Assembly: GCA_030602965.1 (NCBI GenBank)
Contig: JAUVYS010000002.1
Location: forward strand, 1 to 46,433
Source of the DNA: Candidatus Bathyarchaeota archaeon
GTDB lineage: Archaea; Thermoproteota; Bathyarchaeia; RBG-16-48-13; JAGMEO01
Reading direction: 5' to 3'
Length of the DNA: 46,433 bases
Notes under the pieces: model-generated
The model's input: only the letters and a program-made list of their open reading frames with translations
Databases searched by the model: none
What the model was told of the DNA's origin: nothing
Shown: positions 1 through 13,196 of the stretch, piece by piece
Numbering within the stretch: the first letter of the stretch is position 1
How the letters are laid out: every line of letters starts with the position of its first letter
Translations under genes and position numbers: made by a program

Positions 1-1
1 C

Positions 2-190: not shown

Positions 191-313
191 TCTTAAACCC
201 GAGCCTTTTTCAGTAAAAATCTCAGCATTAACCAAACCACTTTTCGCAATTCCCAACCACTTTATTATCTGAGTCTGTTTCCACGCGGGCAACGGGTGAG
301 TTTCAAAAGCCAA
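131..313 (-). CDS. hypothetical protein (60 aa, TTG start)
   Basis: ORF preceded by the GAGAGG SD-like box and the bipartite upstream motif. Confidence 0.55.
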   Translation of the reverse strand: MAFETHPLPAWKQTQIIKWLGIAKSGLVNAEIFTEKGSGLREFIVSAIEDVNEALNIMDG

Positions 314-330
314 CTTAAAAACCTCTCTAA

Positions 331-350
331 CCTATACCTATACGTTTTGC
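331..350 (-). promoter_or_regulatory. bipartite upstream motif GCAAAAC-N7-TATAGG
   Basis: Minus-strand reading: GCAAAACGTATAGGTATAGG. It is followed by GAGAGG and the TTG start at 313. Confidence 0.55.
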
Positions 351-449
351 TTGATTCGGACAATCTTCAGGGATAAACGCTTTAATGTTTAAGCAGTATA
401 TACCACGATTATTTGAGCAACCTTTACAACTCAAAGTTTTTCACCTGTC

Positions 450-743
450 TTATCTTCTCCCTGAATAATGGAGGTTAGCCTGGGGGATCTCCCAAGTTCG
501 AGGTCGTAATCTGTTTATCTCAGCATCAACAAAATAGCCCCAAACTTCAACACTTCCCTGAATGAAACCAAACCATTTTTTCCCCTTAAGAACTCCATCG
601 GGAAATTCATATTCTCCCTCTTCAACTATCTCAACGCCAAACCAAAACCAACCACTAAAAGATTCCCAACCTTTCAAAACCTCTTTGTCGTCTATAAAGA
701 GCTTAGTCTTATCGCCCACTTCCCGACTTTCAAACCGTGCCAT
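450..743 (-). CDS. hypothetical protein (97 aa)
   Basis: ATG start with GGTGAG SD 5 nt upstream, plus the upstream motif. Confidence 0.7.
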   Translation of the reverse strand: MARFESREVGDKTKLFIDDKEVLKGWESFSGWFWFGVEIVEEGEYEFPDGVLKGKKWFGFIQGSVEVWGYFVDAEINRLRPRTWEIPQANLHYSGRR

Positions 744-756
744 ATTCTCACCTTAA

Positions 757-776
757 CCTATACTGGAAGGTTTTGC
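757..776 (-). promoter_or_regulatory. bipartite upstream motif GCAAAAC-N7-TATAGG
   Basis: Minus-strand reading: GCAAAACCTTCCAGTATAGG, then TTAAGGTGAGAATATG. The motif abuts the TAA stop of the upstream gene. Confidence 0.6.
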
Positions 777-1160
777 TTAGATCTTTTCTACGTCTTGACC
801 TAAAAGTTTCGCAAAGGCTTCGGCTGTTTGGTGGTCGTTTACTCCTTCAAGAGTCTTAAAAGCTATCTCTCGCGCTTCGCTAATACTGTATTTGATAGCT
901 CTACCGATTACCTCAGTTAAGGCATTATGAAGAGCGGTCTTTTTCTGTTCCTCTTTTGACATCTCAAAGTCTTTCTGAAGTATGCGGTACTTCAAATATT
1001 CCCGATTATGACGAATCAAGGGTTCAAGAGATTCAATAACCAACTGAATGTTTAATTCATATTTCTTACTTTCTTCATACCTCTTCCTCTCATGCTCGTT
1101 GATAAAATCCTGTTCTTCTTCGGTGTAACTCATTTCAATCAACCTCTTCATTTTCATCAT
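777..1160 (-). CDS. hypothetical protein (127 aa, helical and charged)
   Basis: Long ORF on the dominant strand, overlapping the upstream gene end. Confidence 0.7.
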   Translation of the reverse strand: MMKMKRLIEMSYTEEEQDFINEHERKRYEESKKYELNIQLVIESLEPLIRHNREYLKYRILQKDFEMSKEEQKKTALHNALTEVIGRAIKYSISEAREIAFKTLEGVNDHQTAEAFAKLLGQDVEKI

Positions 1161-1353
1161 CCCAAATAATGTAATCTACTCTACTGAATGGCATAAATAT
1201 TTTATTTCCATTCTCAAGAATAGCTTTTACATATAACTGTTGAAAAATCGTGTGTGCGGTGATTTGAATCTGTGCATGGCTATCTATAGTATCAGTCACT
1301 AATCTACCTGACCCCTCTTTATTTGACATGTTTTCACGAAAATATTTATTCAT
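1135..1353 (-). CDS. hypothetical protein (72 aa from the ATG at 1353; track start 1368 is TTG)
   Basis: The ATG at 1353 lies 9 nt after GAGGTC and downstream of the motif. Confidence 0.6.
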   Translation of the reverse strand: MNKYFRENMSNKEGSGRLVTDTIDSHAQIQITAHTIFQQLYVKAILENGNKIFMPFSRVDYIIWDDENEEVD

Positions 1354-1368
1354 ATTTCTTGACCTCAA

Positions 1369-1388
1369 TCTATAAACTGAGGTTTTGC
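1369..1388 (-). promoter_or_regulatory. bipartite upstream motif GCAAAAC-N7-TATAGA
   Basis: Minus-strand reading: GCAAAACCTCAGTTTATAGA, then TTGAGGTCAAGAAATATG. Confidence 0.6.
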
Positions 1389-1495
1389 GTTAACATTAGC
1401 CGACAAAAAAAAGATATATGAAATATACGCAAAAATGGATCCGAAAAGATGATAAATGAATCGTACATCAAAGACAAAAAAAAAGAGGGAGGCAG

Positions 1496-2476
1496 TTAAG
1501 CCTTTATCAAGTCGCTGAGTTTCTTCAGCTTTCCAGACTTCACCCGTTCCTTAAGCCAACCAAGACCTTTATCAACCGCTTCTTTTTTGTCGTCTATCAA
1601 TAAGCAAGCTCCTGAGATCGTGCTTAGTTTCTGTTTAGTGTGGTCTGTCTGTCCCTTCGGAGTCTTCCTGAACTCTCCATGTCCAGCGATCCAACTGGAA
1701 GCCATAGCCAAACCCCAAAGCGTCTTCGGTTCATCTTTGAAACGATCAAAAACCGTCTTGATTGTCTTCTTACCTAACCCATAGCTTAAGCCCATAGCCG
1801 ACATAATAACCCTCATTTCTTTAGCCGACACACTAACTTTTCTCGATTGTTTTACACGGTTAAATACGCTGTGCTGATTGTCTTCTGCTCGTTTGATTGC
1901 TTCTTTCAATCTCGGTTCAAGTTCTCGAAGGCGTTCAATCCTTAACACCCGTTCAAAGTTTCCAGTGTTCAATCCGAACCTTTGAAGCCCTGACACATTC
2001 AACCAGGAGAGAGGATTAAAACACAACTCTACACGAATGAAAGATCCTATTCTTATGGCGTTTCGTGTGGTGATAGTTCCCCCGTTGATCTGGAAGCCCA
2101 CCTTCAAACCTGCAACTTCTCTGATAAAATCTACTTTCCCGTACATCCCTTCAACATCCAACAAAGGAACGCCTATGATCTTCTCTGCTGTTTGATACAC
2201 AACTTCGGGAGGGATCAACAAATGCTTCTGTGTGGCTACTGCCCTAACTTTCCCGTCTATTACGATAAACTGCAAAGGCTTCGAGTTAGGCGTGTGGTTT
2301 TCATCAAAGAACCCTAAACCCTTCCTTTTAATCTCTGCATCTATCTTACGCCCATGCACAAGTCTAAGATAAGACCATTTCGCACGTTTCCTCCAAACTG
2401 GAAGATCCGCCTGTGTGCCGTCTTCTAACTCTACAACACTCGGAGATTGTAAAGTTCCAACTAAAATCTGCTCCAT
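1496..2476 (-). CDS. hypothetical protein (326 aa), possibly DUF932-like phage/plasmid protein
   Basis: Long ORF. The segment GFQINGGTITTRNAIRIGSFIRVELCFNPL recalls the DUF932 core pattern (recalled from memory, not searched). Confidence 0.6.
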   Translation of the reverse strand: MEQILVGTLQSPSVVELEDGTQADLPVWRKRAKWSYLRLVHGRKIDAEIKRKGLGFFDENHTPNSKPLQFIVIDGKVRAVATQKHLLIPPEVVYQTAEKIIGVPLLDVEGMYGKVDFIREVAGLKVGFQINGGTITTRNAIRIGSFIRVELCFNPLSWLNVSGLQRFGLNTGNFERVLRIERLRELEPRLKEAIKRAEDNQHSVFNRVKQSRKVSVSAKEMRVIMSAMGLSYGLGKKTIKTVFDRFKDEPKTLWGLAMASSWIAGHGEFRKTPKGQTDHTKQKLSTISGACLLIDDKKEAVDKGLGWLKERVKSGKLKKLSDLIKA

Positions 2477-2490
2477 TATTTCACTCTCAC

Positions 2491-2510
2491 CCTATAAGTA
2501 AGGATTTTGC
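2491..2510 (-). promoter_or_regulatory. bipartite upstream motif GCAAAAT-N7-TATAGG
   Basis: Minus-strand reading: GCAAAATCCTTACTTATAGG, then GTGAGAGTGAAATAATG. The motif abuts the TAG stop of the upstream gene. Confidence 0.6.
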
Positions 2511-2807
2511 CTAATTTGTTTGTCGGCTTCTGTTTTTCCATCTCTTATGTATTTCTTTTCGAGTATGCTCAATGCAAAGCCTCCATATATCGCATAAACT
2601 CCCTTTAGAGACAATTTCTTGTTTTTGACATTTTTTACAAGCAATTATGAATCCACTTTTCATATCCTTGAGTACCCCACCCGTTTCAAGAATAACTATT
2701 CCACCTTTATTTTCATAGATTTCTTCAACAAGAAAGAAACTTTTTCCCTTCTCTTCATGGATCTTCATTAATTCTTTCTTTTCCAAAAAATTTTCTACGT
2801 AAGCCAT
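2511..2807 (-). CDS. hypothetical protein with a CxxC pair (98 aa from MAYVENF)
   Basis: The ATG at 2807 overlaps the upstream stop (TAATG coupling). The track start at 2837 would overlap the upstream ORF. Confidence 0.6.
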   Translation of the reverse strand: MAYVENFLEKKELMKIHEEKGKSFFLVEEIYENKGGIVILETGGVLKDMKSGFIIACKKCQKQEIVSKGSLCDIWRLCIEHTRKEIHKRWKNRSRQTN

Positions 2808-2977
2808 TATTTCGCTTCTCCTTCTTTCTCCATACATTCTTTACATATCGGGTAAGATTCCCCGTGACCTTGACAATGAAACCAGTCCTTATCTTCAACC
2901 ATATCAGAAGTCAAGTCTTTACCACAATTAAAACAGTCACCCCAAACCTGTAAGAGTTTATCTATGTCGTCTATCAT
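2807..2977 (-). CDS. zinc-finger mini-protein (56 aa, MIDDIDKLLQVWGDCFNCGK...CKEC), absent from the ORF track
   Basis: ATGA overlap with the upstream gene and TAATG overlap with the downstream gene. Two CxxC pairs. Paralog of 3156..3350 (shared IDDIDKLL). Confidence 0.6.
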   Translation of the reverse strand: MIDDIDKLLQVWGDCFNCGKDLTSDMVEDKDWFHCQGHGESYPICKECMEKEGEAK

Positions 2978-3159
2978 TTCTCAACTTTCCCGTCTAATCT
3001 GAAGCTCCTACATTTCAATACATCTTTAAGGTATTGACGATTAGGCTGTTCTATTGAATGTTGTTCAATCTCTAAATAGTACCCGTATTTCATCTGACAG
3101 TTTCGACATCTCTCTGAAGAAAAACCACTATTCCAAACATGACCGCTTGCTTCTATCAT
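2974..3159 (-). CDS. zinc-binding mini-protein (61 aa)
   Basis: Contains a CxxC motif and is coupled to both neighbours by 4-nt overlaps. Confidence 0.6.
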   Translation of the reverse strand: MIEASGHVWNSGFSSERCRNCQMKYGYYLEIEQHSIEQPNRQYLKDVLKCRSFRLDGKVEK

Positions 3160-3350
3160 TTCGCTTCCTCAAAACAATCTGGACATAATCGATTATAATG
3201 AAGAGGTAAATCATTTCTTCCACATTTTTTACAGGGAACATTCAAAATATCCTCCTTCAAGAGTTTATCTATGTCGTCTATAATCTTAGCTCTCTCAACA
3301 TAACCGTCAAGAGTCTTTCCCTTGAAGAGATCCTTAAGTTTCTCGTTCAT
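3156..3350 (-). CDS. zinc-ribbon mini-protein (64 aa)
   Basis: CKKCG...CPDC motifs. Shares a 23-nt identical stretch with 2807..2977. Confidence 0.65.
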   Translation of the reverse strand: MNEKLKDLFKGKTLDGYVERAKIIDDIDKLLKEDILNVPCKKCGRNDLPLHYNRLCPDCFEEAK

Positions 3351-3590
3351 CTTTATTCCTCATACGTCTTATTTTTCCTTTGTACCGATAAGAACGTGGA
3401 CATCTTTTCATAGTCTAGTCCTCAATCTAAGCAGGTCTTTGAATTCTCCTTATTTCGTATCCCCAAGACTTTTCAAGCAAGAGATATTTACCTTTGAAGT
3501 GTTCCCGTTTCTGTATGGTTTCAAAAAGATCCTTTAATAAACCAATAGCGTTCAATCATTCTCCCTCAATAAAGAAAAGGAGGGTTTTGC

Positions 3591-4016
3591 TTATCCTTGT
3601 TTATAGATCCATTGTTTAAGACGACATAGATACTGTTTGTCTTGCAGTTGTAAGATTGCTTCATGGTCTTCTATAAAATCAGAGTTGTCTGGATAGAATC
3701 GTTTCAATAGATGAAAATAGATTCTTGTCCACATACGATCTAAGGGAGCATCCATACTTGCTGTTGCGATATACGTTAATGCTTCATAATCGGTGGCTTC
3801 CGTTATTTTCTCCCCTTTACTATTCTTGATTTGTTTTAATCGTTCCATTTGGATTCGAGTCTTTTGTTCCTCAGTTATCATAGCTGACCATCCTCTATGA
3901 CCAATGATAGTTCTCGGCTTCGAGAGAAGTTCAGCTAACATATCAAATATCCGTAAACCTTGTTCTCTCTGTTTAACTGTGCCTTCACCGAAAAGCAGTT
4001 TTTGTTCTTTCGTCAT
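3591..4016 (-). CDS. hypothetical protein (141 aa)
   Basis: ORF with the upstream motif. Its stop is directly followed by GCAAAAC. Confidence 0.65.
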   Translation of the reverse strand: MTKEQKLLFGEGTVKQREQGLRIFDMLAELLSKPRTIIGHRGWSAMITEEQKTRIQMERLKQIKNSKGEKITEATDYEALTYIATASMDAPLDRMWTRIYFHLLKRFYPDNSDFIEDHEAILQLQDKQYLCRLKQWIYKQG

Positions 4017-4026
4017 GGTATCTCAA

Positions 4027-4046
4027 TCTTTACTCTGTCGTTTTGC
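4027..4046 (-). promoter_or_regulatory. bipartite upstream motif (GCAAAAC-N7-TAAAGA variant)
   Basis: Minus-strand reading: GCAAAACGACAGAGTAAAGA, then TTGAGATACCATG. Confidence 0.5.
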
Positions 4047-4142
4047 TTAGAAAATTCTAAAGCTCCGCATAAAGCATCATTGCTTAAACTATTCAAGTAA
4101 CCAAGAAGGAGTCTTCTTCGGCATTAGTACCATCATCACCCC

Positions 4143-4586
4143 CTAAAAGAAGTTAGATAGAGATTTTTGATCTCCTTGTTGTCCAAATAATTCTCTAGTT
4201 TTCTTCTTGAATATTTTAATCAAAGCGTTATTGATCTCTATTGGAATATTGACTATGACTTCCCCTTCACAATTTAAACAATTAGTGAGATAAGCGGTTC
4301 GGTCTTTTTCAGGATCAAAACAGAAACTATTCGAGTTGTATGTATCACATATTGGACATTTAACATTAGTCCATGCTATTTGTGTTGAGAGGATTCCAAA
4401 ATTCTCATCTTTAAACTCTATACAGGGTGTTACTTTTCCCTTCCCATCCATAAACACAACTTCTTCTGTCGTCTTCTCTTCTATTGAGGGTTTCCAGTCT
4501 TCCCGTACTTTATCAAAGGTTTCTCCAAGAGTAGCCATTTCCATTTGACGCGCAAGTTCAATAGCATCATCAGCCGGTTGGCGCAA
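4143..4586 (-). CDS. zinc-ribbon protein (147 aa; start uncertain, TTG at 4586 or an internal ATG)
   Basis: CPICD...CLNCEG motifs on the dominant strand. Confidence 0.6.
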   Translation of the reverse strand: MRQPADDAIELARQMEMATLGETFDKVREDWKPSIEEKTTEEVVFMDGKGKVTPCIEFKDENFGILSTQIAWTNVKCPICDTYNSNSFCFDPEKDRTAYLTNCLNCEGEVIVNIPIEINNALIKIFKKKTRELFGQQGDQKSLSNFF

Positions 4587-4601
4587 ACAACATCATCTCT
4601 A

Positions 4602-4622
4602 CTTTAAACATAGAGATTTTGC
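4602..4622 (-). promoter_or_regulatory. bipartite upstream motif, degenerate (GCAAAAT-N7-TTTAAAG)
   Basis: Minus-strand reading: GCAAAATCTCTATGTTTAAAG, then TAGAGATG. Confidence 0.4.
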
Positions 4623-4631
4623 GTAGATTTC

Positions 4632-4880
4632 TCAATCTTTCTTCATGACCTCAGCTTTCATCTCTTCAAATTTTTTGGAATAAGATTTTTTCAGATCCAA
4701 ATATTTCATTAAACGATTTGATTCATCCTGCACTCCTTCATGTATCAAAGATAGTAATGGACAAAATTGACTGAGAACTTCTCTTACCTTTGGCTTCACC
4801 TCTGGCACATAATTCTGAACCGCAAAACGTTTTTCTTGTTCACACTCATCCTTCACAGGACACAACTTACACTTCATCAT
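4632..4880 (-). CDS. Cys-containing hypothetical protein (82 aa)
   Basis: CKLCPVKDEC near the N-terminus. SD GAGGTTGAA precedes the ATG. Confidence 0.65.
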   Translation of the reverse strand: MMKCKLCPVKDECEQEKRFAVQNYVPEVKPKVREVLSQFCPLLSLIHEGVQDESNRLMKYLDLKKSYSKKFEEMKAEVMKKD

Positions 4881-4891
4881 TTCAACCTCAA

Positions 4892-4911
4892 TCTATACAA
4901 AAAGTTTTTGC
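4892..4911 (-). promoter_or_regulatory. bipartite upstream motif GCAAAAA-N7-TATAGA
   Basis: Minus-strand reading: GCAAAAACTTTTTGTATAGA, then TTGAGGTTGAAATG. Confidence 0.6.
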
Positions 4912-4915
4912 GTGA

Positions 4916-5287
4916 CTATTCACCCAACAAAAAAATAATATCTTTAATAAGTGATCTTGAAACTTTCACATGATCCTCTGGTGGCAGACATTTTGAGCAT
5001 CCTTTTCCTTTACACACATTACATGATTCATGTAAAAAACCTTCAAGATATTTCTGTAATTGTCTTTTTCTTTCTTTCATATAAGAGGGATTCTTTCTAA
5101 CGGAAACAGATGATATTACTTGTTCAAAGTCTTCCTTCTTAACTGAACCTAAAGGTGTGAGATTAGTATCTTCACCTGACGATTCTAGTAGGGATACACT
5201 GTATGTATCAGGGCTAGTCTTATCCCAAATAAACATCAAAGTCTTATCAGAACCTAATTCCAACTCAAACATTTTCTTCTCAGTCAT
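4916..5287 (-). CDS. hypothetical protein with a DnaJ-type CxxCxGxG zinc motif (123 aa)
   Basis: C-terminal CNVCKGKGCSKC. Confidence 0.65.
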   Translation of the reverse strand: MTEKKMFELELGSDKTLMFIWDKTSPDTYSVSLLESSGEDTNLTPLGSVKKEDFEQVISSVSVRKNPSYMKERKRQLQKYLEGFLHESCNVCKGKGCSKCLPPEDHVKVSRSLIKDIIFLLGE

Positions 5288-5296
5288 TATCTACAC

Positions 5297-5512
5297 CTAA
5301 CGCGTAAAGATTTTATCATAGAATAAAATAATAAAAAAAAACCCGATTACAAGAATTCCAATAAATAATATTACACCGATGATAATCCAACTTATTAGAA
5401 ATATCCAAAGAGGTATTTTATATCCAACAAGCAAATAAGCTGCTATACATGCCGCTACAAAAGCAACATAACCAAATGCTAATATGAGCATGAAAGCCGA
5501 TATTTTATCCAT
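5297..5512 (-). CDS. small integral membrane protein (71 aa, 2-3 TM)
   Basis: Almost entirely hydrophobic sequence. Confidence 0.65.
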   Translation of the reverse strand: MDKISAFMLILAFGYVAFVAACIAAYLLVGYKIPLWIFLISWIIIGVILFIGILVIGFFFIILFYDKIFTR

Positions 5513-5515
5513 TTT

Positions 5516-5863
5516 TTATTTGTCCTGGGCATTTTCTTCCCTTAACATTTTTTGAATTGTTTCAGCTAATTCCTTATATTTATCATTGTACACCTTAATT
5601 TCCCATTTCCACCCGTGCAGTCCTGCTACTTCACGTTCTATCGTCATGATCCCATGCCATTTATCACGCCAACCAAAAGGAGTATATTTTCGTAAAAAAT
5701 GTCCTTCTTTTGGATGAATAACTATCCACGGCGCATCGACACATGAATACAATTCGGCGATCAGATTTCCAGGTAATACTCTCTGTACCTTCTCTTTTAC
5801 CTCTTTTATGGTTAGAACCTTTTTGGGTTTAACAATTTCAATCGAAACATCAACCATACTCAA
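5516..5863 (-). CDS. hypothetical protein (115 aa)
   Basis: ORF on the dominant strand, tightly packed with its neighbours. Confidence 0.65.
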   Translation of the reverse strand: MSMVDVSIEIVKPKKVLTIKEVKEKVQRVLPGNLIAELYSCVDAPWIVIHPKEGHFLRKYTPFGWRDKWHGIMTIEREVAGLHGWKWEIKVYNDKYKELAETIQKMLREENAQDK

Positions 5864-5902
5864 TCATCCTCTTCTCTATCAACTGTGCTTCATTACTCTT
5901 CA

Positions 5903-6151
5903 TTACTCTGTAAGAGTTTTAGGGGTAGCACGTACTAGAAAAACATCGTCTTTGAGGATACCACTAATCTTTTTTCCGTGAAAAAGCACTTTCACCACTG
6001 TTTCCCCGTCACAGATTCGCACGTCTCGATCAACATCAATAATGATTTCTCTGAGATCCGGCTTCCAACCAAGAGCTTTCATTTCCTGTGGGCTAACTTT
6101 TGGTTTAAATCTAATCCACAAATTCTTATCATCTCGCATTTCAAGATACAA
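5903..6151 (-). CDS. hypothetical protein (82 aa, TTG start)
   Basis: GGTGAG lies 5 nt upstream of the TTG, with the upstream motif beyond it. Confidence 0.6.
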   Translation of the reverse strand: MYLEMRDDKNLWIRFKPKVSPQEMKALGWKPDLREIIIDVDRDVRICDGETVVKVLFHGKKISGILKDDVFLVRATPKTLTE

Positions 6152-6164
6152 TTCAACTCACCTA

Positions 6165-6185
6165 CTTTATACTCAGAAGTTTTGC
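6165..6185 (-). promoter_or_regulatory. bipartite upstream motif GCAAAAC-N7-TATAAAG
   Basis: Minus-strand reading: GCAAAACTTCTGAGTATAAAG, then TAGGTGAG. Confidence 0.55.
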
Positions 6186-6383
6186 TTAAAAATGACCTGG
6201 AGGAGGATATTTACCAAAAAATTCTATTAATTCTTCTACAAACTTGTCAATACGTTTCTTAATTTTCTTCTTGATCGTTTTGAGCTTCATCTTTCTATTC
6301 ATCTTCGGACAAACCAAAAAACCGCGAATAAACCCGAAGAAATCAATCCATCAACCTGAACTCCCATAGTTATAAACTCCTCA

Positions 6384-6404
6384 TATTATACTGTTAATTT
6401 TTGC
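6384..6404 (-). promoter_or_regulatory. bipartite upstream motif GCAAAAA-N7-TATAATA
   Basis: Minus-strand reading: GCAAAAATTAACAGTATAATA, then TGAGGAG and the ATG at 6367 of a short ORF. Confidence 0.5.
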
Positions 6405-6411
6405 CTAAAAG

Positions 6412-6419
6412 TTTAAAGG
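6412..6419 (+). promoter_or_regulatory. classical archaeal-type TATA box (AAAAG-TTTAAAGG) for the rightward gene
   Basis: TTTAAAGG ends 31 nt before the ATG at 6451. It is divergent from the leftward motif. Confidence 0.45.
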
Positions 6420-6450
6420 AACGGAACACATATCTTTTTTGTGGTTAAAC

Positions 6451-6735: not shown

Positions 6736-6795
6736 TACACACCAACTAGAAATATTTAAAAAGAAATATTGAATAATAAAAAAAGATGATATAAA

Positions 6796-7326
6796 ATGGT
6801 AGATTCAATAATCAGTATTATGATACGAGATCCAGTACATCCTTGTGGGCCTTACGACCGCACAGGACACTCATTTCGAGTAGATATTTTTAATTGTGAC
6901 TTCACCCCCCTTTTTTATAAGGGTATAACCTACAACAATTTCCCGCTTAACGTAAAGGGAAAGAAAGGAGGTTCCATACATAGACAAATCAGAGTTCCTC
7001 CCGGTTTTTATTTGATTCGTGGTCATGCCAGATGCCATAATGTTGTTACAGAGTGGGCTATGGTTCAGGTAGGATGCGGCACAACAGTATGCGTAAACTT
7101 GTTGCCTACATCAATCCATTACTGCCTATTGAGAACCGTAGGAGCCATATTAGCCACTGATCAAGTGAAAAAAATTTACGCTAAAGAAGCAGACGAAGTA
7201 GTTCGAGCAATCAATAAACTACTAAAAAGAATGCCTAGAACCTTGATGCCTGCACCACCTACAGCCAAACAACTCGAAGAACTAGAAAACGAAGAGAAAG
7301 AAGAGGAGAAAAAAGAAGCTAGCTAA
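6796..7326 (+). CDS. Cys-rich hypothetical protein with an E/K-rich tail (176 aa)
   Basis: ORF with TATTTAAA 35 nt upstream and a hairpin plus T5 after the stop. Confidence 0.65.
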   Translation: MVDSIISIMIRDPVHPCGPYDRTGHSFRVDIFNCDFTPLFYKGITYNNFPLNVKGKKGGSIHRQIRVPPGFYLIRGHARCHNVVTEWAMVQVGCGTTVCVNLLPTSIHYCLLRTVGAILATDQVKKIYAKEADEVVRAINKLLKRMPRTLMPAPPTAKQLEELENEEKEEEKKEAS

Positions 7327-7345
7327 GTAGCTAGCTACCCTTTTT
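7318..7345. terminator. hairpin plus T-run between convergent genes
   Basis: GCTAGCTA/TAGCTAGC palindrome at 7318-7335, followed by TACCCTTTTT. Confidence 0.5.
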
Positions 7346-7367
7346 ATTCTTAGATTTAAGAACCTAC

Positions 7368-8234
7368 TTAAACTTTGAATATGCCTGTATCAACCCATTC
7401 ATGTTTTATGATCGTCCACCAATCGATTGCTAAACCTGTTAAAACATACTCGTAAGGTAACCATCCATAACCGTTATCACCCCAACCCGTACCCCAAGAA
7501 TTTCTGATGAGTAACGCTCCAACAGTATTTTTTCTGCAAATATTATTCTTAATCTGCCTATCATTGTTGTATCCAACAGCCACCACAGCATGACCTCCAA
7601 GAATCCTTTCTCCACGACATGGATAAGGAATCTTCCCATCTCCTGCTGCTTGTCTGATTGAACTGTAAACTGTAAATCCGAACATGGATGGCAGGCCAGC
7701 CGCTAAATTCGTTTTGATTCGAGCTAACAAAATGTCTTTAGGTGTAAGTGAAGGATCTAACCTCACATACTTAAGTGGTTGATAATTTTGTGCAAAAGAA
7801 TAACAAAACGCGGAAGGCTCATCATCAAATTTACTGATGACATACGGCATATATTCCTCCGGAGGAACACCGAATAATCTCATTGCTCCCATAGTTGTAC
7901 GGAGGTATGCTCCAGTGTCTCCAGTCCAATGAAGCAATTTCCGTGTTACCTTGTAAAGGAAGAGTCTGGATGCATCAATATGTCTTCCAAAAGCCTTCCG
8001 TTCATAATATTCAACTAAAGATATACCAGCGTTTGCTGTGCAGGAACCGAGGGCACCTTGATCCTCAATCGGTGGACACCACGCACGGAGATCCACAGCA
8101 GTTGGAAGACCAACTTTTAAAGGCTCAACAATCCCCATTGTTTCTATCATAGATTTAACTTTTTCATGTTCCAGTGTGTAATCTCTAAAATCAGGTAAAT
8201 CAGGAAGCCATCCCATACTTCTTACTTCACTCAT
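7368..8234 (-). CDS. papain-family (C1A) cysteine peptidase
   Basis: QGALGSC (catalytic Cys), GGHAVVAVGY (His) and NSWGTGWGDNGYGW (Asn-Ser-Trp) appear in the canonical order. Confidence 0.88.
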   Translation of the reverse strand: MSEVRSMGWLPDLPDFRDYTLEHEKVKSMIETMGIVEPLKVGLPTAVDLRAWCPPIEDQGALGSCTANAGISLVEYYERKAFGRHIDASRLFLYKVTRKLLHWTGDTGAYLRTTMGAMRLFGVPPEEYMPYVISKFDDEPSAFCYSFAQNYQPLKYVRLDPSLTPKDILLARIKTNLAAGLPSMFGFTVYSSIRQAAGDGKIPYPCRGERILGGHAVVAVGYNNDRQIKNNICRKNTVGALLIRNSWGTGWGDNGYGWLPYEYVLTGLAIDWWTIIKHEWVDTGIFKV

Positions 8235-8301
8235 CTTTTCAACCTCACTAAAAATTATCTATTATCAATTTAAATTTTGTGTGTCCTCGCGTTTCCGTGA
8301 G

Positions 8302-8496
8302 TTATTTTTTAAAGACGACGATTCTTATTACTTGAGCCAAGATCATAAAGGCAACCGCGAACCCAGCTACGATAACAATTATGATTAAACTACCACTCGT
8401 TGATTCCCATACGTCCGTAACAGGAATAACTGCAATAATTAGGTTTAAGAAGAGAAATATGAATCCCATTACTAACAAGATCTTAGACAGCTTCAT
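8302..8496 (-). CDS. small membrane protein (64 aa from MKLSKILL, 2 TM)
   Basis: Two hydrophobic helices. The ATG at 8496 avoids overlap with the upstream gene. Confidence 0.55.
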   Translation of the reverse strand: MKLSKILLVMGFIFLFLNLIIAVIPVTDVWESTSGSLIIIVIVAGFAVAFMILAQVIRIVVFKK

Positions 8497-8510
8497 TTGA
8501 CGCGCGATAC

Positions 8511-9026
8511 CTAAAGAATGATGCTCATAGTTTCCATTGTTCTCGGTAAAACTACCCACGCGCTTAACCATGCATTTACATGTGGTTTCACTGGATCTGC
8601 TTCTGACACAATTTCAAAACTGAAAGTATCTTTAAAAATGGGTTGAGGATACATAGCAGCCGTTTTTTCTTCTTTTAATGCTACAAACTTGGTGAACCAA
8701 TCGGAAAGATATCTGATGAAACAGCCTTCATACCACTTCATAGAAACAAAATCCACGTCTGTACTGAACATGCCGACAGGATAAAACACTACATTACTCT
8801 TTAAAGTTACACAGTGTTCCCCTACAGGCATTTCATAAGTAGGCCAACCGAAATGAACAGGTTGAAAACCTACAACTGACATACGAATTCTCTGTTCTTC
8901 TTCAATCTTAGCTGCTTCTGCTATTGCATCTTCATATCTACTTAACGCACGAACATTATTATTCATGAAATTCTGAAGAAGATTTTTAGTGCTTAATTCC
9001 TCAGTTTCAGGATATAAAAAAACCAT
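8511..9026 (-). CDS. hypothetical protein with an MVFLYP N-terminus; paralog of 26422..26970
   Basis: Shares RYxDA..EAA.I..E.RI+M....PVH.G.P and the C-terminal VLPRTM motif with 26422..26970. Confidence 0.7.
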   Translation of the reverse strand: MVFLYPETEELSTKNLLQNFMNNNVRALSRYEDAIAEAAKIEEEQRIRMSVVGFQPVHFGWPTYEMPVGEHCVTLKSNVVFYPVGMFSTDVDFVSMKWYEGCFIRYLSDWFTKFVALKEEKTAAMYPQPIFKDTFSFEIVSEADPVKPHVNAWLSAWVVLPRTMETMSIIL

Positions 9027-9090
9027 AATTACTATTTAGTTTTTAAATTAATAAGAGTTTGCAGATACCTATGCTAATACGCGAGAATCT

Positions 9091-9276
9091 TCATCGGATA
9101 CTTGTTTCTCTTCGCCAATCATAATACCATCCATAGAAAGTTTCTCTCTCCAAAAAATCAAGTATTAAGTATTTTCGTAAATAAATACAATAAAACTTCA
9201 CAAGTTGCCTCTTAACTTTGTAAGGAAAATCTTTTGGGAATTGCCCTTTTGTATTAATCATTTCAGTCTCGCTCAT
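9091..9276 (-). CDS. hypothetical protein (61 aa)
   Basis: ORF on the dominant strand. Confidence 0.5.
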   Translation of the reverse strand: MSETEMINTKGQFPKDFPYKVKRQLVKFYCIYLRKYLILDFLERETFYGWYYDWRRETSIR

Positions 9277-9512
9277 GGTCTCATAGAGCTTCCTTCGTAT
9301 TAATCAAGTTATACGCGTATGAATTCTGGATCTGGATTTGTGCTTCCTAAATTATTTATGTAAGATTTAACGTCTGAGGGCTATAGGTGTTGAGGTTGAA
9401 TGAAACTCAGATTGATGCTTTGGATTTAACGATTGCTGCTTTGCGCTCTTACGAGAAACGAATGGGTGAACTTGTAGAAACATTCGCTGAATTGATTGTA
9501 GAAGTGACTCGC

Positions 9513-9755
9513 CTAGTTAAACAGGTGAATTAACATTCTTCTTCCTTTCTTGATATGTTCACACTCATATTCAACTGTACGAGTTTCTTTATTATACTTG
9601 TAAGCTAAATGACCATCAATTTTATCAAAAAGCCATGAATATTTTTGTGTTGAATATGCTCTCGCCGTTTTACTATAATCTGATAATCTAAGGGCATCAG
9701 GATATTTTTTCTTAAATTCAGATTCATTTATTGTGTTTTCCATCTTTCCACCCAT
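9513..9755 (-). CDS. hypothetical protein (80 aa)
   Basis: ORF in a coupled gene chain. Confidence 0.55.
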   Translation of the reverse strand: MGGKMENTINESEFKKKYPDALRLSDYSKTARAYSTQKYSWLFDKIDGHLAYKYNKETRTVEYECEHIKKGRRMLIHLFN

Positions 9756-9937
9756 GGTAGGTTTGTCTCATCCTTCAGTTGCAGTTCGTCTTGGTCTATA
9801 TATGATTCTTTCAATTCGCACACGCGCGCAAACCTGGTTACTTTGTTACATCTTATGCATCTGATTACGAGTTTTTTTCCCTTTATTTTGCGAACTTCAT
9901 ATCGGTTGGTTCCGCAAACTTCACAATCCAATTTCAA
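9728..9937 (-). CDS. zinc-ribbon protein (69 aa)
   Basis: CEVCG...CIRCN motifs. Confidence 0.6.
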   Translation of the reverse strand: MKLDCEVCGTNRYEVRKIKGKKLVIRCIRCNKVTRFARVCELKESYIDQDELQLKDETNLPWVERWKTQ

Positions 9938-10176
9938 CCACCTCGAACGTAATTTTTACATGAAGATGCTATGAGTTTTAGTAAATCTTCTTTGAATTGA
10001 CTAAACTTTGATTCTTCAATGACTTTACTGAGTGATGGAGCAAGAGACAAAAAAGTAGGATTTTCTGCTATCTGATAATTCGCCTTCTCTAAGATAGAGC
10101 AGCCTCGATTGCAATTACGACAACTTTCTAACATTATATCACCTCCCTTAAGCCTCGATGAATCTATTGAATTCAT
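9934..10176 (-). CDS. Cys-containing hypothetical protein (80 aa)
   Basis: CRNCNRGC motif and a 4-nt overlap with the downstream gene. Confidence 0.55.
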   Translation of the reverse strand: MNSIDSSRLKGGDIMLESCRNCNRGCSILEKANYQIAENPTFLSLAPSLSKVIEESKFSQFKEDLLKLIASSCKNYVRGG

Positions 10177-10402
10177 TCCACATTTCTAGCGCTGTATCGC
10201 CTTTTGTTGTAGTCACAATTTTTTTCCTTTTTTTCTCCTTGACTTCTATACGTAATAATCCTCTTTCCTCTAGGTCTTTAATATACCGCTTAACCTTGGG
10301 AAAGCTTACGCGCGCTCCAAAATACAGATTAGTTACTCCACAACCGCTATGTGCTAGCTCTAACATCAACATTTGAATCTCAATTTTGCTACGACGACGC
10401 AT
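10148..10402 (-). CDS. winged-helix DNA-binding protein
   Basis: KIEIQMLMLELAHSGCGVTNLYFGARVSFPKVKRYIKDLEERGLLRIE fits a wHTH layout. GGAGG SD is present. Confidence 0.65.
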   Translation of the reverse strand: MRRRSKIEIQMLMLELAHSGCGVTNLYFGARVSFPKVKRYIKDLEERGLLRIEVKEKKRKKIVTTTKGDTALEMWNEFNRFIEA

Positions 10403-10634
10403 AAATCATATTCCTCCAATTCACGCCATGCCTAAGACTCAAAAACAAAGGGGTTAACGTTGCTTCAAGCCAAGAGATATCTTCAGAGCAGGGTTTCGTG
10501 CTAGAGAACATCAATAAATACTTTTTTAGCGTCATGAATCTTTATTAATTCTTTCCTCTTCGCTATCAGCCAATCCCTAAAGTTCTTCTCTCCCAAATCA
10601 GGTTCTTCACACCTAATATAATAAACAACTTGCA

Positions 10635-10832
10635 TCATTCCACCTCCAAAGGTTTACAAACTGCGAACCAATGTCCTATATCGATAATATCATGATCTTC
10701 TATGCCTTTTCCACACTTCGGACATGGCCCACATTCAAAATAGACTTTAGCCCACATTTCGGCTGTCTCACCACGAATACGAACCTCTTCAGATTCAATC
10801 ATTTCTTTTCCCAATTTCTTTTTCTCCTTCAA
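10635..10832 (-). CDS. zinc-ribbon protein (65 aa)
   Basis: CGPCPKCG...C motifs. Confidence 0.6.
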   Translation of the reverse strand: MKEKKKLGKEMIESEEVRIRGETAEMWAKVYFECGPCPKCGKGIEDHDIIDIGHWFAVCKPLEVE

Positions 10833-11030
10833 TTAACCATAATATGATGTGTCGTGAAGACAGCCTAATTCTTGTGATCCACAGAAAGGACAATATTTCG
10901 GTTTTTCCTTAAGGTTTTCCTGCTTATTACTATCTTCTTCAGGAATCCAGGGATAAGTTGATTTTACAACCATTGGAAAATCTAAATTACATTTTTTACA
11001 TGTAATCCAACCAAGACCTATTTCTCCCAT
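10833..11030 (-). CDS. zinc-ribbon protein (65 aa)
   Basis: CKKC...CPFCG motifs. Confidence 0.6.
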   Translation of the reverse strand: MGEIGLGWITCKKCNLDFPMVVKSTYPWIPEEDSNKQENLKEKPKYCPFCGSQELGCLHDTSYYG

Positions 11031-11404
11031 CTTTTTCTCCTTCTCTTCTTCATATATCCCCTTGGAATTTTTGCGTAAAAAGGTTTAGCTAACACGTTTT
11101 CAGAGAGCTCTTTTCCCACGATTGAACCCCACCAATTAAGACGGACATTAAAAGTGAATGTGTAACCTTGCAGTTCAAAATAAGCTACACGTCCTTTACA
11201 GTCATTAAGCATCATGAGTTCATGCAGGGTGAATCCTTCTTTTGCGTAAATATGATAGCCTCTCCCTGAAGGACTACTCCTTAACTCAACAGTCTTACCA
11301 AGGTAACGAGCATTAAAATATTTTTGTAGCATACGGAATTGATTACAATAATCCATATCAACTGACTGGGCTCTTGTAGGTCTATGAGGAATGGTTTTAA
11401 TCAT
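11018..11404 (-). CDS. hypothetical protein with archaeo-eukaryotic primase (AEP)-like motifs (128 aa)
   Basis: VDMDY (DxD-like) and SPSGRGYHIY (sGxGxH-like) lie 33 aa apart. The protein is too short for a canonical AEP. Confidence 0.35.
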   Translation of the reverse strand: MIKTIPHRPTRAQSVDMDYCNQFRMLQKYFNARYLGKTVELRSSPSGRGYHIYAKEGFTLHELMMLNDCKGRVAYFELQGYTFTFNVRLNWWGSIVGKELSENVLAKPFYAKIPRGYMKKRRRKRWEK

Positions 11405-11609
11405 GTTTTTCCTCTCCTACGCGCGCGTATTTTACATCTCTAAGATCAGGATGCCTTCTCATGACTTGAACAAGAATGATACTTGTATCCCACTCTTGTC
11501 TGAGATGTAGAATTTTATGATTCTGAAACATTCTTAGTGCATCACGAGAATTATCTTCTTCGCCTAGAATTTCCATGTTGTTTTCTTTGAGTAGTATGTA
11601 GTCTTTCAT
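11397..11609 (-). CDS. hypothetical protein (70 aa)
   Basis: ORF coupled to the downstream gene. Confidence 0.55.
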   Translation of the reverse strand: MKDYILLKENNMEILGEEDNSRDALRMFQNHKILHLRQEWDTSIILVQVMRRHPDLRDVKYARVGEEKHD

Positions 11610-11767
11610 TTTTTATTCATTCTCCTCTGATCCTAAGTAGTGTTTTCCCTTAACATTTGGAAGTTTTACATAGAAGAGTCCGTTTTCATCTTCGAAGATT
11701 TTAGTCAATAGATTAAGTTTAGGAATGAAGAACATTCCAAGATCTTCTGTACTTTTCATCTGATCCT

Positions 11768-12721
11768 TCATTTTTTCTTGCGCCCTCTTTTTGCGCCTGC
11801 ACGTTCTCCTAATGGAATATCTTCATCCCACGTCATATCTCCACTGTCTTTTTCTCCCGGGCTAGCAAAAACTCCACGTCTACGCCAGTACCAATCATAA
11901 AAAATAGGGGTTACTTCTTCTTTTCGACTTATTAATTCACGGATTATTTCTGGTGGTGTATCTGAATATGTTGCGCTTGGTTCTGCCGTGATGCTTCCAT
12001 AGAACATGGACTTAAACCAAGTTCTGATTTTTGTTGTAGCATACGTTAAGTAATACTGTGTTCTAGATCCTCTAACGTCATAGTCTAAACTGATGCTTAT
12101 TATGATAATTACGCCTTCACTTTCTGTATCAACATTGGCAGTTACAGTGACATGGTGAATTCGAGTCTCTAATATTTCATGTTTCTGTTTTAAAAAGGCT
12201 TCTTCTTCTCTAATTGATGTGGTTAAGGTGCTGATTTGTCCAAGGTAATATTCATAATTACTTCGCAGTTCAGCAAGTCGAATGATATAAGTTTGTTCTC
12301 GTTTTATCCAGCCTCGATATGCACCTAGACTTCTTCGATCCCGAGTCTGCCAACCTTCATAAGAACTTATTACCCGTATCAATTTACGGATTGATTCAAG
12401 AATACTGAGTCGTCTTATAGGAATAGGTAGAGGCCATTCATACAAACGTTCTTGAAAAATAGTTAAACGTTTACTTATCTCTTCAATTTTTTGTTGTCGA
12501 TCACTTATTCTATCTTCTAAGTTTTGAATAGCTTCACGTCTAGTTTTTATTCGTTCATCTCTATCAATATCTTGTTCTTTTTTTATTAATTGAGTGATTT
12601 CATCCAAGTATGTTTTAGCAGCAGACAATTGTTCCTTAGAATCTTCAAGGATTTCTTCTTCACGAAGTATTTCAGCAGTTAATTCTTCATCTGATAACTG
12701 ACTGAAATCTATAAAAGCCAA
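11768..12721 (-). CDS. coiled-coil protein (317 aa)
   Basis: The N-terminal 200 aa are heptad-like and E/K/R-rich. The C-terminus is basic. Confidence 0.7.
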   Translation of the reverse strand: MAFIDFSQLSDEELTAEILREEEILEDSKEQLSAAKTYLDEITQLIKKEQDIDRDERIKTRREAIQNLEDRISDRQQKIEEISKRLTIFQERLYEWPLPIPIRRLSILESIRKLIRVISSYEGWQTRDRRSLGAYRGWIKREQTYIIRLAELRSNYEYYLGQISTLTTSIREEEAFLKQKHEILETRIHHVTVTANVDTESEGVIIIISISLDYDVRGSRTQYYLTYATTKIRTWFKSMFYGSITAEPSATYSDTPPEIIRELISRKEEVTPIFYDWYWRRRGVFASPGEKDSGDMTWDEDIPLGERAGAKRGRKKK

Positions 12722-12737
12722 CCAATCACTTTCTAGC

Positions 12738-12902
12738 TCAGTCTGTTTTTATCCGTCTTACTATAGGTGGACGTTTCTTCTGGAGAACACGGTATCCACA
12801 ATGAGAACATTTAATGCGACCACCGCGCATTTCTAGTTCTTTATATGAAGTGTCACGTCCACATCGAATACATTTATACATTAATTCGTCTTTTTCACTC
12901 AT
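12738..12902 (-). CDS. rpoP: RNA polymerase subunit P (RpoP/Rpb12)-like zinc ribbon, 54 aa, absent from the ORF track
   Basis: MSEKDELMYKCIRCGRDTSYKELEMRGGRIKCSHCGYRVLQKKRPPIVRRIKTD matches the Y.C..CG...i+C..CGyR+L.KkRpp...+vk pattern. TAATG coupling links it to the upstream ORF. Confidence 0.7.
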   Translation of the reverse strand: MSEKDELMYKCIRCGRDTSYKELEMRGGRIKCSHCGYRVLQKKRPPIVRRIKTD

Positions 12903-13153
12903 TAATAACAAAACCCTTGTTCACGATCATATTTACATTTACGTCGAATCGGGGCGGCGCGGTTCCACCAAAGCTTCATATCTCCAGCTTCCCGTCGTTG
13001 CTGTACACGACAATGACTACGACAATACTCATTTTGTTCAAGAATATTCACTTGTCTATATCGTCTTCCCCTTAACCTTCTCATACAAAGCATACAATCT
13101 GATATAGGAGGATCGATTACGTTTTGCATCTCTATAATCATTAAAGACTGCAT
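12902..13153 (-). CDS. Cys-rich basic protein (83 aa; alternative start at MIIEM)
   Basis: CMLC...YCRSHC...C motifs. First gene of the operon that contains the RpoP-like ORF. Confidence 0.55.
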   Translation of the reverse strand: MQSLMIIEMQNVIDPPISDCMLCMRRLRGRRYRQVNILEQNEYCRSHCRVQQRREAGDMKLWWNRAAPIRRKCKYDREQGFCY

Positions 13154-13163
13154 GAACCTTCAC

Positions 13164-13184
13164 TATTATATACTGAGTTTTTGC
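13164..13184 (-). promoter_or_regulatory. bipartite upstream motif GCAAAAA-N7-TATAAT; its AT-rich core is shared with the divergent rightward gene
   Basis: Minus-strand reading: GCAAAAACTCAGTATATAATA, then GTGAAGGTTCATG. Confidence 0.55.
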
Positions 13185-13196
13185 TTATTTTAGCAT

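Follow-up and report, generated by a model that had tools for sequence, protein, structure and literature searches.

A fixed-register cassette upstream of small genes in an archaeal extrachromosomal element and its relatives, most likely an element-specific promoter class

A sequence cassette of about 35 bases precedes eleven small genes of contig JAUVYS010000002.1, by its gene content an archaeal extrachromosomal element of virus- or plasmid-like type. The cassette joins a GCAAAAY box, a TATAG box and a Shine-Dalgarno (SD) sequence in fixed register ahead of the start codon; it is enriched over shuffled sequence, lies on the coding strand and is conserved across related elements. Most likely it represents an element-specific class of archaeal promoter. 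The window analysed here is the entire contig of 46,433 bp, and all coordinates refer to it.

Results

The cassette in the window

In the following, G1 denotes the G of GCAAAA, and sites are cited by their upstream-end coordinate on the minus strand (350, 776 and so on to 13184); start codons and some open reading frames (ORFs) were assigned by hand. All ten minus-strand sites of the original prediction are present where it had placed them, and their enrichment was borne out by comparison with 100 dinucleotide shuffles: allowing at most one mismatch, GCAAAANNNNNNNNTATAG has 12 matches in the window against a shuffled mean of 1.52 (maximum 5). Nine of the 12 matches (GCAAAA-N8-TATAG) are predicted sites on the minus strand between 332 and 13184. 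The tenth predicted site (4602-4622) is a variant in which TTTAAA replaces TATAG, and an eleventh, GCAAAAC-N7-TTCTTT-ATT-GAGGG, was newly added at 3571-3590. GCAAAAY by itself is not enriched over the whole contig (22 versus 21.1); the signal resides in the bipartite unit plus its placement. When 6-mers were counted without bias in the 50 nt ahead of 99 ORFs, GCAAAA (9 versus 2.2) and TATAGG (7 versus 1.3) both came among the top seven words, the others including SD-like words. With a position weight matrix (PWM) trained on the sites themselves, the sites score 22.6-36.1 bits against 18.5 for the best shuffle, and the plus strand of the window has no match.

The full unit reads (T)-A-N-GCAAAAY, N7, TATAGR, N2-3, a GAGG or GGTGA SD, 2-10 nt and the start codon, with an invariant A at -2 and a frequent T at -3. 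The N7 spacer is C/T-rich toward its 5' end and carries only 0.1-1.0 bit per position in the self-trained PWM. At every site the SD-like GAGG/GGTGA begins at G1+22 to G1+24 and is locked to the motif, while the start codon ranges from G1+30 to G1+37. The distance from the end of TATAGR to the start codon measures 10-17 nt, and not 8-24 nt as first stated. The observation that the box often follows directly on the stop codon of the previous gene holds at 776, 2510, 3590 and 6185. Moreover, TAA/TAG is retained at 4046, 6404 and 13184, which have no upstream ORF, and is therefore part of the motif.

All eleven cassettes lie on the minus strand. The one at 313-352 (caaGCAAAAC-gtatagg-TATAGG-tta-GAGAGG-N8-TTG) serves the ORF 131-313, and that at 743-778 (TAA, the stop of 777-1160, then GCAAAAC-cttccag-TATAGG-tta-AGGTGA-gaat-ATG) serves the ORF 450-743. 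At 1353-1390 (aacGCAAAAC-ctcagtt-TATAGA-tt-GAGGT-N8-ATG), a T8 run plus TGTCGGCT (1398-1405) stands upstream. The cassette at 2476-2512 (TAG stop, then GCAAAAT-ccttact-TATAGG-GTGAG-N-ATG), with AGCCGACA 8 nt upstream (2521-2528), heads the DUF932-like 326-aa gene 1496-2476. The added variant occupies 3555-3592 (TAA, the stop of 3591-4016, then GCAAAAC-cctcctt-TTCTTT-att-GAGGG-N-TTG), and the ORF 3591-4016 is itself preceded by a cassette at 4016-4048 (TAAGCAAAAC-gacagag-TAAAGA-tt-GAGAT-acc-ATG). The TTTAAA variant at 4586-4624 (tacGCAAAAT-ctctatg-TTTAAA-gta-GAGAT) has an ambiguous ATG/TTG start, and the cassette at 4880-4913 (cacGCAAAAA-ctttttg-TATAGA-tt-GAGGT-tgaa-ATG) precedes the ORF 4632-4880. 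An operon of 5903-6151 and downstream genes is headed by the cassette at 6151-6187 (atttttTAAGCAAAAC-ttctgag-TATAAA-gt-AGGTGA-N6-TTG). The cassette at 6367-6406 (cttttAGGCAAAAA-ttaacag-TATAAT-at-GAGGAG-N9-ATG) shares a divergent gap with a canonical plus-strand promoter at 6407-6419. Finally, the cassette at 13153-13186 (aaaaTAAGCAAAAA-ctcagta-TATAAT-agt-GAAGG-ttc-ATG) marks the start of the gene array and occupies the 43-bp divergent gap between gene 12902-13153 (-) and gene 13197-13733 (+). We call this array early as an inference from gene content and position.

Conservation in related elements

Ten related loci (L046-L055) were retrieved through the 326-aa protein family (1496-2476, minus strand), the only early-array protein conserved family-wide. 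It has 73 homologues in a representative library and 62 in an indexed search, many of them on contigs of 27-73 kb, and the ten loci come from the 62 homologue-bearing contigs. Samples with relatives include SRR22387873 and SRR22388292 and, from the Joint Genome Institute (JGI), 3300031876, 3300031877 and 3300031604. ACGCAAAVC occurs 11 times in L050 (0.42 expected) and seven times in L046 (0.28 expected), every copy on the coding strand, which amounts to 7-11 box copies per 11 kb in these two loci. In L046, L050, L054 and L055 the layout is (A)C-GCAAA(A/G)C, N15-17, GAGG, 7-8 A-rich nt and the start codon, which stands at G1+34 to G1+40. The cassette of the orthologous 326-aa gene is recognisable in five elements; that of L046 reads GCAAAAC-ccataacc-TTTATAG-t-GAGG-aaaaaaac-TTG. 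The A/T box, 7 nt from the GCAAAAY box in the window, is displaced to 8-10 nt in L046, L050, L054 and L055 (N10 in L046 and L050), and it is often degenerate there with the GCAAAAY box kept. In all, five related elements carry the GCAAA(A/G)C box in this register to the SD, with about 35 nt to the start codon, as conservation in related genomes would require. The idea that the motif is element-specific stands in part: the exact N7 form is found only in this element, whereas the box and the SD/start register are shared clade-wide. A hidden Markov model built from the window motif missed the sites of the relatives owing to their different spacing.

Other relatives are arranged differently. L047 has a partly palindromic arrangement, TTNTAAGC-AAC-GCTTANAA. 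The distant relatives L049 and L052 have an ordinary contiguous promoter, GCCAAAACGC/TTAAAA (a slash here marks the boundary between adjoining elements), and L053 has AAAGC/TTATATAG; these lie 41-58 nt before the start codon. The GCAAAAC box is not present in L048 or L051. Searched as GCAAAAN8TATAGRTTRAGG, the motif had 0 matches in IMG/VR. The 43 single matches in JGI metagenomes came with no clustered copies or related proteins and were set aside as chance.

Canonical promoters in the same genome

The original prediction had distinguished the motif from canonical TFB recognition element (BRE)/TATA boxes and had suggested two promoter classes. Both points hold, as such boxes were confirmed at 6407-6419 (+), 6752-6763 (+), 27441-27451 (-) and 45394-45410 (-), with a further one at 8267-8280 (-), so that canonical promoters coexist with the cassettes in one genome. 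The temporal control that the prediction drew from the two classes is conjectural. Ahead of several genes outside the motif class, an A-rich BRE and TTTAAATA-type boxes precede the ATG by about 40-48 nt. Three of these promoters, all on the minus strand, are informative in their spacing: ACAAAA/TTTAAATT at 8267-8280 stands 20 nt before GAGGT of the papain-like gene 7368-8234, AGC/TTTAAATA at 27441-27451 stands 24 nt before GAGGA of the ORF 26983-27405, and CAAAAAC/TTTTTATATA at 45394-45410 stands 20 nt before GAGGT of the ORF 45192-45362. The first of these, a strong promoter, belongs to a papain-family (C1) cysteine peptidase gene, an unusual cargo for an archaeal element.

A promoter reading of the cassette and its alternatives

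We tentatively favour the reading that the cassette is a unidirectional core promoter joined to a short SD leader, which the host RNA polymerase would read together with TBP and TFB. Abutting the box would be a weak TATA-like octamer, rich in A/T, that often holds the TAA/TAG stop of the preceding gene. Just downstream of it, at about -21 to -15, A-N-GCAAAAY would act as a recognition element specific to the element family; a factor probably binds it, through a TFB contact or as an element-encoded regulator, which takes in the regulator-binding alternative of the original prediction, and such binding would set the cassette genes apart from the canonical BRE/TATA class. After a spacer of 7-10 nt, TATAG would serve as an A/T-rich initiator or melting region, with the start predicted on or beside its AG. 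The SD (GAGG/GGTGA) would then lie 1-4 nt behind the predicted 5' end, with 2-10 nt left to the start codon. Here we infer the seat of TBP, the transcription start site (TSS) and the protein reading GCAAAAY. The SD must be transcribed, and the start therefore lies upstream of G1+22.

In the window and in the relatives alike, no upstream position is richer in A/T than the octamer that begins at -11 to -8 from G1. This octamer has 6.3 A/T of 8 in the window against a background of 5.0, and 5.8 of 8 against 4.4 at 28 sites in relatives; both values exceed the 95th percentile of a maximum-over-offsets null, in TATA tests that were designed after looking at the data. Clear abutting octamers are ATTTTTAA/GC (6185), TAAAATAA/GC (13184) and TTTTCTAA/GC (4046), and in relatives T7AA/GC behind a terminator (L054:1834) and CTTTTAA/GC (L047). 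As the octamer often includes the prior stop codon, it explains both why the box follows stops and why TAA/TAG is kept where no ORF precedes. In geometry, TBP on the octamer and the usual distance of about 22 bp would put +1 on the AG of TATAG both in the window (N7) and in L046 (N10). The same rule of about 22 bp gives the same relation of TSS to SD at the three canonical promoters, whose TATA 3' ends lie 20, 20 and 24 nt before GAGG. Several features suggest that a protein reads the box: it is strong and asymmetric, the octamer next to it is weak, the cassette is confined to one gene class, and some boxes occur in tandem or as orphans.

On the other hand, several points weigh against this reading. 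Only geometry places the TSS. At several sites, such as 350 (GAATCAAG) and 4911 (ATAGTCAC), the abutting octamer makes a poor TATA box, and in L046, L050 and L055 it is mostly purine-rich (GAAGAAAC); its A/T richness is partly due to the conserved A at -2 and to stop codons. In the relatives, 14 of 28 sites have a match to a TATA PWM that begins farther upstream, between -26 and -23 relative to G1 (random mean 8.5; p=0.001 allowing for the offset scan), and in the window 7 of 11 sites have one that begins at -32 to -29 (p=0.14); with a TATA there, the TSS would fall at or in the GCAAAAY box. Moreover, GCAAAA agrees with the Sulfolobus BRE consensus, RNWAAW, and CAAAA(A)C stands as BRE beside a true TATA at 45394-45410 and in L052 and L049, so GCAAAAY could be a displaced BRE. 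We also know of no archaeal factor that reads a box just downstream of TATA.

The upstream matches lead to the nearest rival, which seems to us distinctly less probable: transcription would start at or in GCAAAAY, from a degenerate BRE/TATA 15-24 bp upstream and inside the preceding ORF, and the entire unit would be a conserved 5' untranslated region of 30-35 nt in which the box is an initiator or 5' tag and UAUAG an A/U-rich element keeping the SD accessible. Beside the PWM signal of the relatives, A/T-rich octamers can be picked by hand 20-24 bp upstream of G1 at 10 of 11 window sites, such as GCGAAA/CTTTTAGG at 799-806 and CTTTATCC at 13208-13215. Clear boxes stand at the array starts of L046 (TTTAAATA, gap 16) and L047 (TTTTATCC, gap 17), TATAGACGACA is common to the 326-aa gene promoters of L053, L050 and L047 at -55 to -57 from the start codon, and an SD within a 30-nt leader would be conventional. 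Yet the signal is non-significant in the window, as given above, and reaches only p=0.053 (Mann-Whitney) over all sites. The gap depends on the clade (about 22 versus about 16 bp), so the box is not fixed relative to +1, and no upstream A/T box whatsoever is seen at L046:9966 or at window site 4622. At L054:1834 the box has only the terminator T-run and 2 nt upstream of it, and TTTAAATA of L046 may belong to the divergent gene. The canonical promoters of the window, moreover, predict very short leaders, not ones of 30-35 nt. We therefore rank the abutting octamer over the upstream one: it is significant in the window itself, one geometry fits both clades, it agrees with the short leaders predicted for canonical promoters, and it suits L054:1834, which has no more than a terminator T-run ahead of the box. 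This ranking is not secure.

The cassettes might also act in RNA only, a reading that we consider unlikely. Internal cassettes would then be intercistronic modules for translation initiation or processing within long polycistronic transcripts with few real promoters; GCAAAAC would be cleaved or bound by a protein, and UAUAG-GAGG would strengthen ribosome binding. The cassettes do fit the gaps between consecutive same-strand ORFs almost exactly, SD included, every copy is on the coding strand, the box lies inside upstream coding sequence in L046 and L050, and at several sites the TATA-like sequence is merely weak. However, no conserved RNA structure was found: fold z-scores range from -3.75 to +1.1, folding surpasses that of shuffles at only 3 of 11 sites, own-site pairing is not above pairing between sites (p=0.15), and no Rfam family reaches its gathering score. 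Cassettes right behind T-run terminators (1388, 4911, L054:1834, L050:10109) need a new start, the divergent gaps that hold the array-start cassettes (13184, L046:3635, L047:187) require a promoter, and some boxes are tandem or lack SD and ATG (L050:9003 and 3414; L046:4875), as DNA binding sites would. A specific RNA mechanism, a hairpin in which the C/T-rich N7 pairs with GAGG and sequesters the SD, was rejected, being strong at 1388, 4622 and 3590 only.

The original prediction had weighed a T7-type layout, TATA followed by G at +1, as for a single-subunit RNA polymerase. TATAGG/TAAAGA with GAGG superficially resembles the -4 to +6 region of T7, T3 and SP6 promoters, and the compact promoter reading likewise predicts a start near that G. 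The resemblance does not hold further, and we regard such a promoter as extremely improbable. The equivalent of the specificity region (-11 to -5, N7) is variable and unconserved, at 0.9 bit per position or less, there is no contiguous conservation, and TATAG shifts or degenerates in relatives while GCAAAAC stays. The prediction was right that no such polymerase is encoded: the longest ORF has 539 aa, and no polymerase domain was found among 60 scanned proteins. Single-subunit RNA polymerases are not known from archaea or their viruses (PMC5569661).

The prediction was also correct that TBP acting at TATAG, with a start 22-24 nt on, would place that start within the ORFs (5-12 nt in, at about 22 nt). 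TATAG was accordingly rejected as a TBP site, as a start about 22 nt on would delete the conserved N-terminus of the 326-aa family, which is conserved from about residue 3 with an invariant G7 and forms the first beta-strand of the model. TATAG and GCAAAAY as an ordinary BRE/TATA pair failed too, the boxes not being contiguous (7 nt apart in the window, 8-10 nt in L046, L050, L054 and L055). Also suggested, and disfavoured, is GCAAAAY in the place of the TATA box of leaderless mRNAs; the same holds for GCAAAA as a BRE with a leaderless start at the ATG. TTG starts stand behind a strong SD at 350, 3590 and 6185 in the window and in the 326-aa orthologues L046:9966 and L054:759, and the start floats over 7 nt (G1+30 to G1+37) while the SD is fixed. 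Sigma-70 promoters are not enriched (37 sites versus 40.1 expected in 1-13400), and the box-to-TATAG spacing is 7 bp.

An RNA polymerase subunit homologue and the split-promoter reading

The original prediction had overlooked an element-encoded RNA polymerase component. The second gene of the operon at site 13184 (12738-12902, minus strand; 54 aa from the ATG) encodes a full-length homologue of Rpo12/RpoP (Pfam PF03604, E=6.4e-6, 26.2 bits versus a cutoff of 24), with a full-length phmmer match to archaeal Rpo12 chains (E=4e-7), a zinc ribbon and the conserved C-terminal RPPIVRRIK tail. Its orthologue in L046 (3713-3886) is the first gene of the early array there; PHROGs contains no family matching it.

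This protein invites a further reading that we think improbable: GCAAAA as a BRE-type and TATAG as a TATA-type half, 7-10 bp apart and not spannable by standard TBP/TFB, would be recognised by an element-encoded factor, possibly together with the element's Rpo12. GCAAAA is like the A-rich BREs at canonical TATA boxes (45394-45410; GCCAAAACGC/TTAAAA in L052 and L049), and the canonical TATA box of L053, TTATATAG, has TATAG at its 3' end. Rpo12 is encoded in both split-cassette elements whose array start is visible (the window and L046) and not in L047 or L052, and L053 encodes a protein with a single TFIIB repeat. Subunit P is needed for open-complex formation and is readily exchanged in the enzyme (PMC2680338). 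The co-occurrence, however, amounts to two elements with Rpo12 and two lacking it. Nothing resembling TFB or TBP was detected among the window proteins, the family-wide 326-aa protein resembles DUF932 and not TFB, and a TSS about 22 nt past TATAG is excluded by the conserved N-terminus. No contact of Rpo12 with promoter DNA is known. A non-canonical archaeal promoter class, used after the element reprograms the host polymerase through Rpo12 and/or a small DNA-binding protein of the early array, is correspondingly a long shot. If true, it would give phage 'polymerase appropriation' its first archaeal counterpart and would assign, for the first time, a function to an RNA polymerase subunit encoded by an archaeal mobile element.

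The TFIIB-repeat protein of L053 (4162-4545; 127 aa), a single TFIIB/TFB cyclin repeat (Pfam E=2e-7) in an element that uses canonical promoters, is by its sequence a candidate element-encoded modulator of transcription initiation. A tblastn search with it found no TFB homologue in the window.

The 326-aa protein and a second motif

The model of the 326-aa protein has a predicted local distance difference test (pLDDT) score of 91 and matches a DUF932/TIGR03299 fold of phage/plasmid type (Foldseek against BFVD, E=7e-10); Foldseek against PDB gave no significant match. A TFB-like role for it was rejected, since Foldseek matches to TFIIB have E>1 and hhalign against the L053 TFIIB-repeat protein gives 0.1% probability. 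As this fold is that of 'phage/plasmid-like' proteins from bacterial phages, it unexpectedly links archaeal with bacterial mobile elements.

A second motif, TGTCG(T/G)CT, often with a T-run before it (TTTTCTGTGTCGTCT), has 15 copies on both strands of the window against 1.4 expected. Thirteen of them lie within 80-4474 and the others at 28919 and 44970. Eight related loci (L046-L053) have 11-25 copies each, and unrelated loci at most three. The arrays stand at contig ends, the last 300 nt of L049 holding five copies, and in every relative the motif occurs behind the stop codon of the 326-aa gene and in its promoter, even where the GCAAAAC box is missing. Its possible roles are as a site bound by the DUF932-like protein, as a repeat of the termini or of replication, or as a signal linked to terminators.

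Other features of the element

The contig has about 37% G+C, with most genes on the minus strand. Its archaeal nature is shown by the encoded Gins51 C-terminal domain, HTH_45 and Rpo12 homologue, in line with the lack of a sigma-70 excess. Among the relatives, a 71-kb contig belongs to the bin of an uncultured Bathyarchaeia metagenome-assembled genome, and on this binning the element is probably associated with Bathyarchaeia. Neither nucleotide similarity nor searches with single proteins turned up a close relative of the contig among phage records or in IMG/VR, and all tested window proteins are singletons at 90% identity.

The main proteins detectably shared with the relatives are two, the 326-aa protein and the Gins51-domain replication protein; a third, smaller match joins ORF 2511-2837 to L050, and the 178-aa ORF 13197-13733 has a homologue in L046. 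The replication module consists of this 178-aa ORF (+) and the overlapping 539-aa ORF 13624-15243 (+), the largest of the contig, with the Gins51 C-terminal domain (Pfam, E=3.7e-15). L046 encodes a homologue of each (242 aa and 666 aa), and L047 and L052 have instead a single replication protein of 708-758 aa, with Gins51_C present in that of L047. No further homologue of the 539-aa protein was detectable in a search of 5.8 billion proteins. In L046, L047 and L052, the relatives with the replication gene in the fetched stretch, it is divergent from the small-gene array. The 326-aa gene is near the contig end in L046, L047, L049, L050, L053, L054 and L055.

The early array of the window encodes a winged helix-turn-helix protein (HTH_45; 10148-10402, minus strand; Pfam E=6.7e-12; PHROG transcriptional regulator), a candidate transcription regulator. 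Zinc-ribbon ORFs lie between 9.5 and 13.2 kb, and the array also contains small zinc-ribbon genes (2807-2977, 2974-3159 and 3156-3350) with a common 31-nt, 90% identical 5' segment (MIDDIDKLL...; copies at 2947-2977 and 3254-3284), a similarity that suggests a recent tandem duplication within the early array. Between the convergent genes 6796-7326 (+) and 7368-8234 (-), a perfect palindrome with an 8-bp stem (AGCTAGCTA...TAGCTAGCT; 7317-7336) is flanked by T-runs on both strands and resembles a bidirectional terminator.

No capsid, portal or terminase was recognised among the scanned window proteins. The cargo includes an HNH endonuclease and a complete three-gene ATP-binding cassette (ABC) importer at 27523-30046 (-), made up of an NMT1-like binding protein, a BPD_transp_1 permease and an ABC ATPase; four glycosyltransferases (32514-36571) and two S-adenosylmethionine (SAM) methyltransferases lie close to it. 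A partition cassette at 42546-43624 (+) comprises four 14-bp iterons (TATAAGGTGTAAGG type), ParA and a downstream gene of 89 aa. The ParA is bacterial Soj-like, about 50% identical to Firmicutes Soj. The entire partition cassette with its iterons recurs on L044, a 3.1-kb Logan contig of higher GC and otherwise unrelated appearance, with 72% ParA identity. As a lead to relatives, ParA gave only L044 and bacterial Soj proteins.

The contig begins with an 18-nt A run (positions 1-20), which is a T run on the gene-coding strand. Near the right end, a GA-rich imperfect tandem repeat, GAGAGAGGGAGAAGGAGAGA, of period 8-10 stands at 45414-45507 beside a divergent promoter region, and the final ~900 nt contain few ORFs. 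No inverted terminal repeat matching the left end to the right contig end was found.

Discussion

To our knowledge, archaeal viruses and plasmids are thought to depend wholly on host TBP, TFB and RNA polymerase acting at ordinary BRE/TATA promoters. We know of few element-specific archaeal cis signals, for which the rudiviral GTC motif is the usual example. Here, a family of 27-73 kb elements from sediment- or wetland-type metagenomes carries a strongly conserved cassette, whose register is kept across elements with only about 50% identity in two shared proteins. No description of this motif, of the element family or of a mobile-element Rpo12 turned up in the searchable literature. The cassette gives a handle on the distinction of gene classes in uncultivated archaeal mobile elements, and box-N16-SD-N7-start can serve as a search key for annotating transcription units in related contigs. 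Moreover, the Rpo12 homologue suggests that such elements may modify the host polymerase. Reviews state that archaeal viruses encode no RNA polymerase, and such a modification would contradict the view that they add nothing to the enzyme.

Among known systems, the closest likeness is to the promoters of SIRV1 and SIRV2, which have a virus-specific GTC motif just downstream of TATA (Kessler et al. 2004 as summarised in PMC5569661). As there, a short conserved motif stands in most promoters of one archaeal element. It recurs in fixed register at 11 window sites, and in L046 and L050 against fewer than 0.5 expected copies, as an element-type cis motif does. In the compact promoter reading it would also lie downstream of TATA, as an addition to host signals and a proposed element-specific cis-regulatory site. 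Unlike the 3-nt GTC motif, the box has 7-9 nt (A-N-GCAAAAY), goes with a weak TATA and a TSS positioned by geometry, keeps a fixed register with an A/T initiator box and an SD, and belongs to one of two promoter classes.

Canonical archaeal BRE/TATA promoters share with the cassette an archaeal transcription host, as indicated by Rpo12, Gins51_C, HTH_45, the TFIIB-repeat protein of L053 and the Bathyarchaeia-binned relative. GCAAAA fits a purine-rich BRE, and TATAG is like the 3' half of the TATA boxes of this lineage. The cassette differs in that its boxes are 7-10 bp apart and the SD lies between TATAG and the start codon. With TATAG 10-17 nt from the start codon and the SD between them, TATAG is therefore not at -26 of any start that keeps the ORF.

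The MotA-box middle promoters of T4 use the bacterial sigma-70 machinery with an activator/co-activator pair. Like them, the cassettes form a second class in a mobile genome, in which an extra box replaces or supplements a weak core element. By analogy this implies a dedicated factor and coordinated regulation; the likeness is functional only, as the machinery of the cassettes is archaeal. The T7, T3 and SP6 promoters have in common with the cassette a TATAG-like sequence followed by purines, but the cassette has no cognate polymerase and no contiguous conservation over 17-23 bp, and its spacing varies among relatives. Thus, because the defining features of the T7, sigma-70 and plain BRE/TATA classes were each tested and failed, the cassette is a member of none of them; in function it is most likely an archaeal element-specific promoter class.

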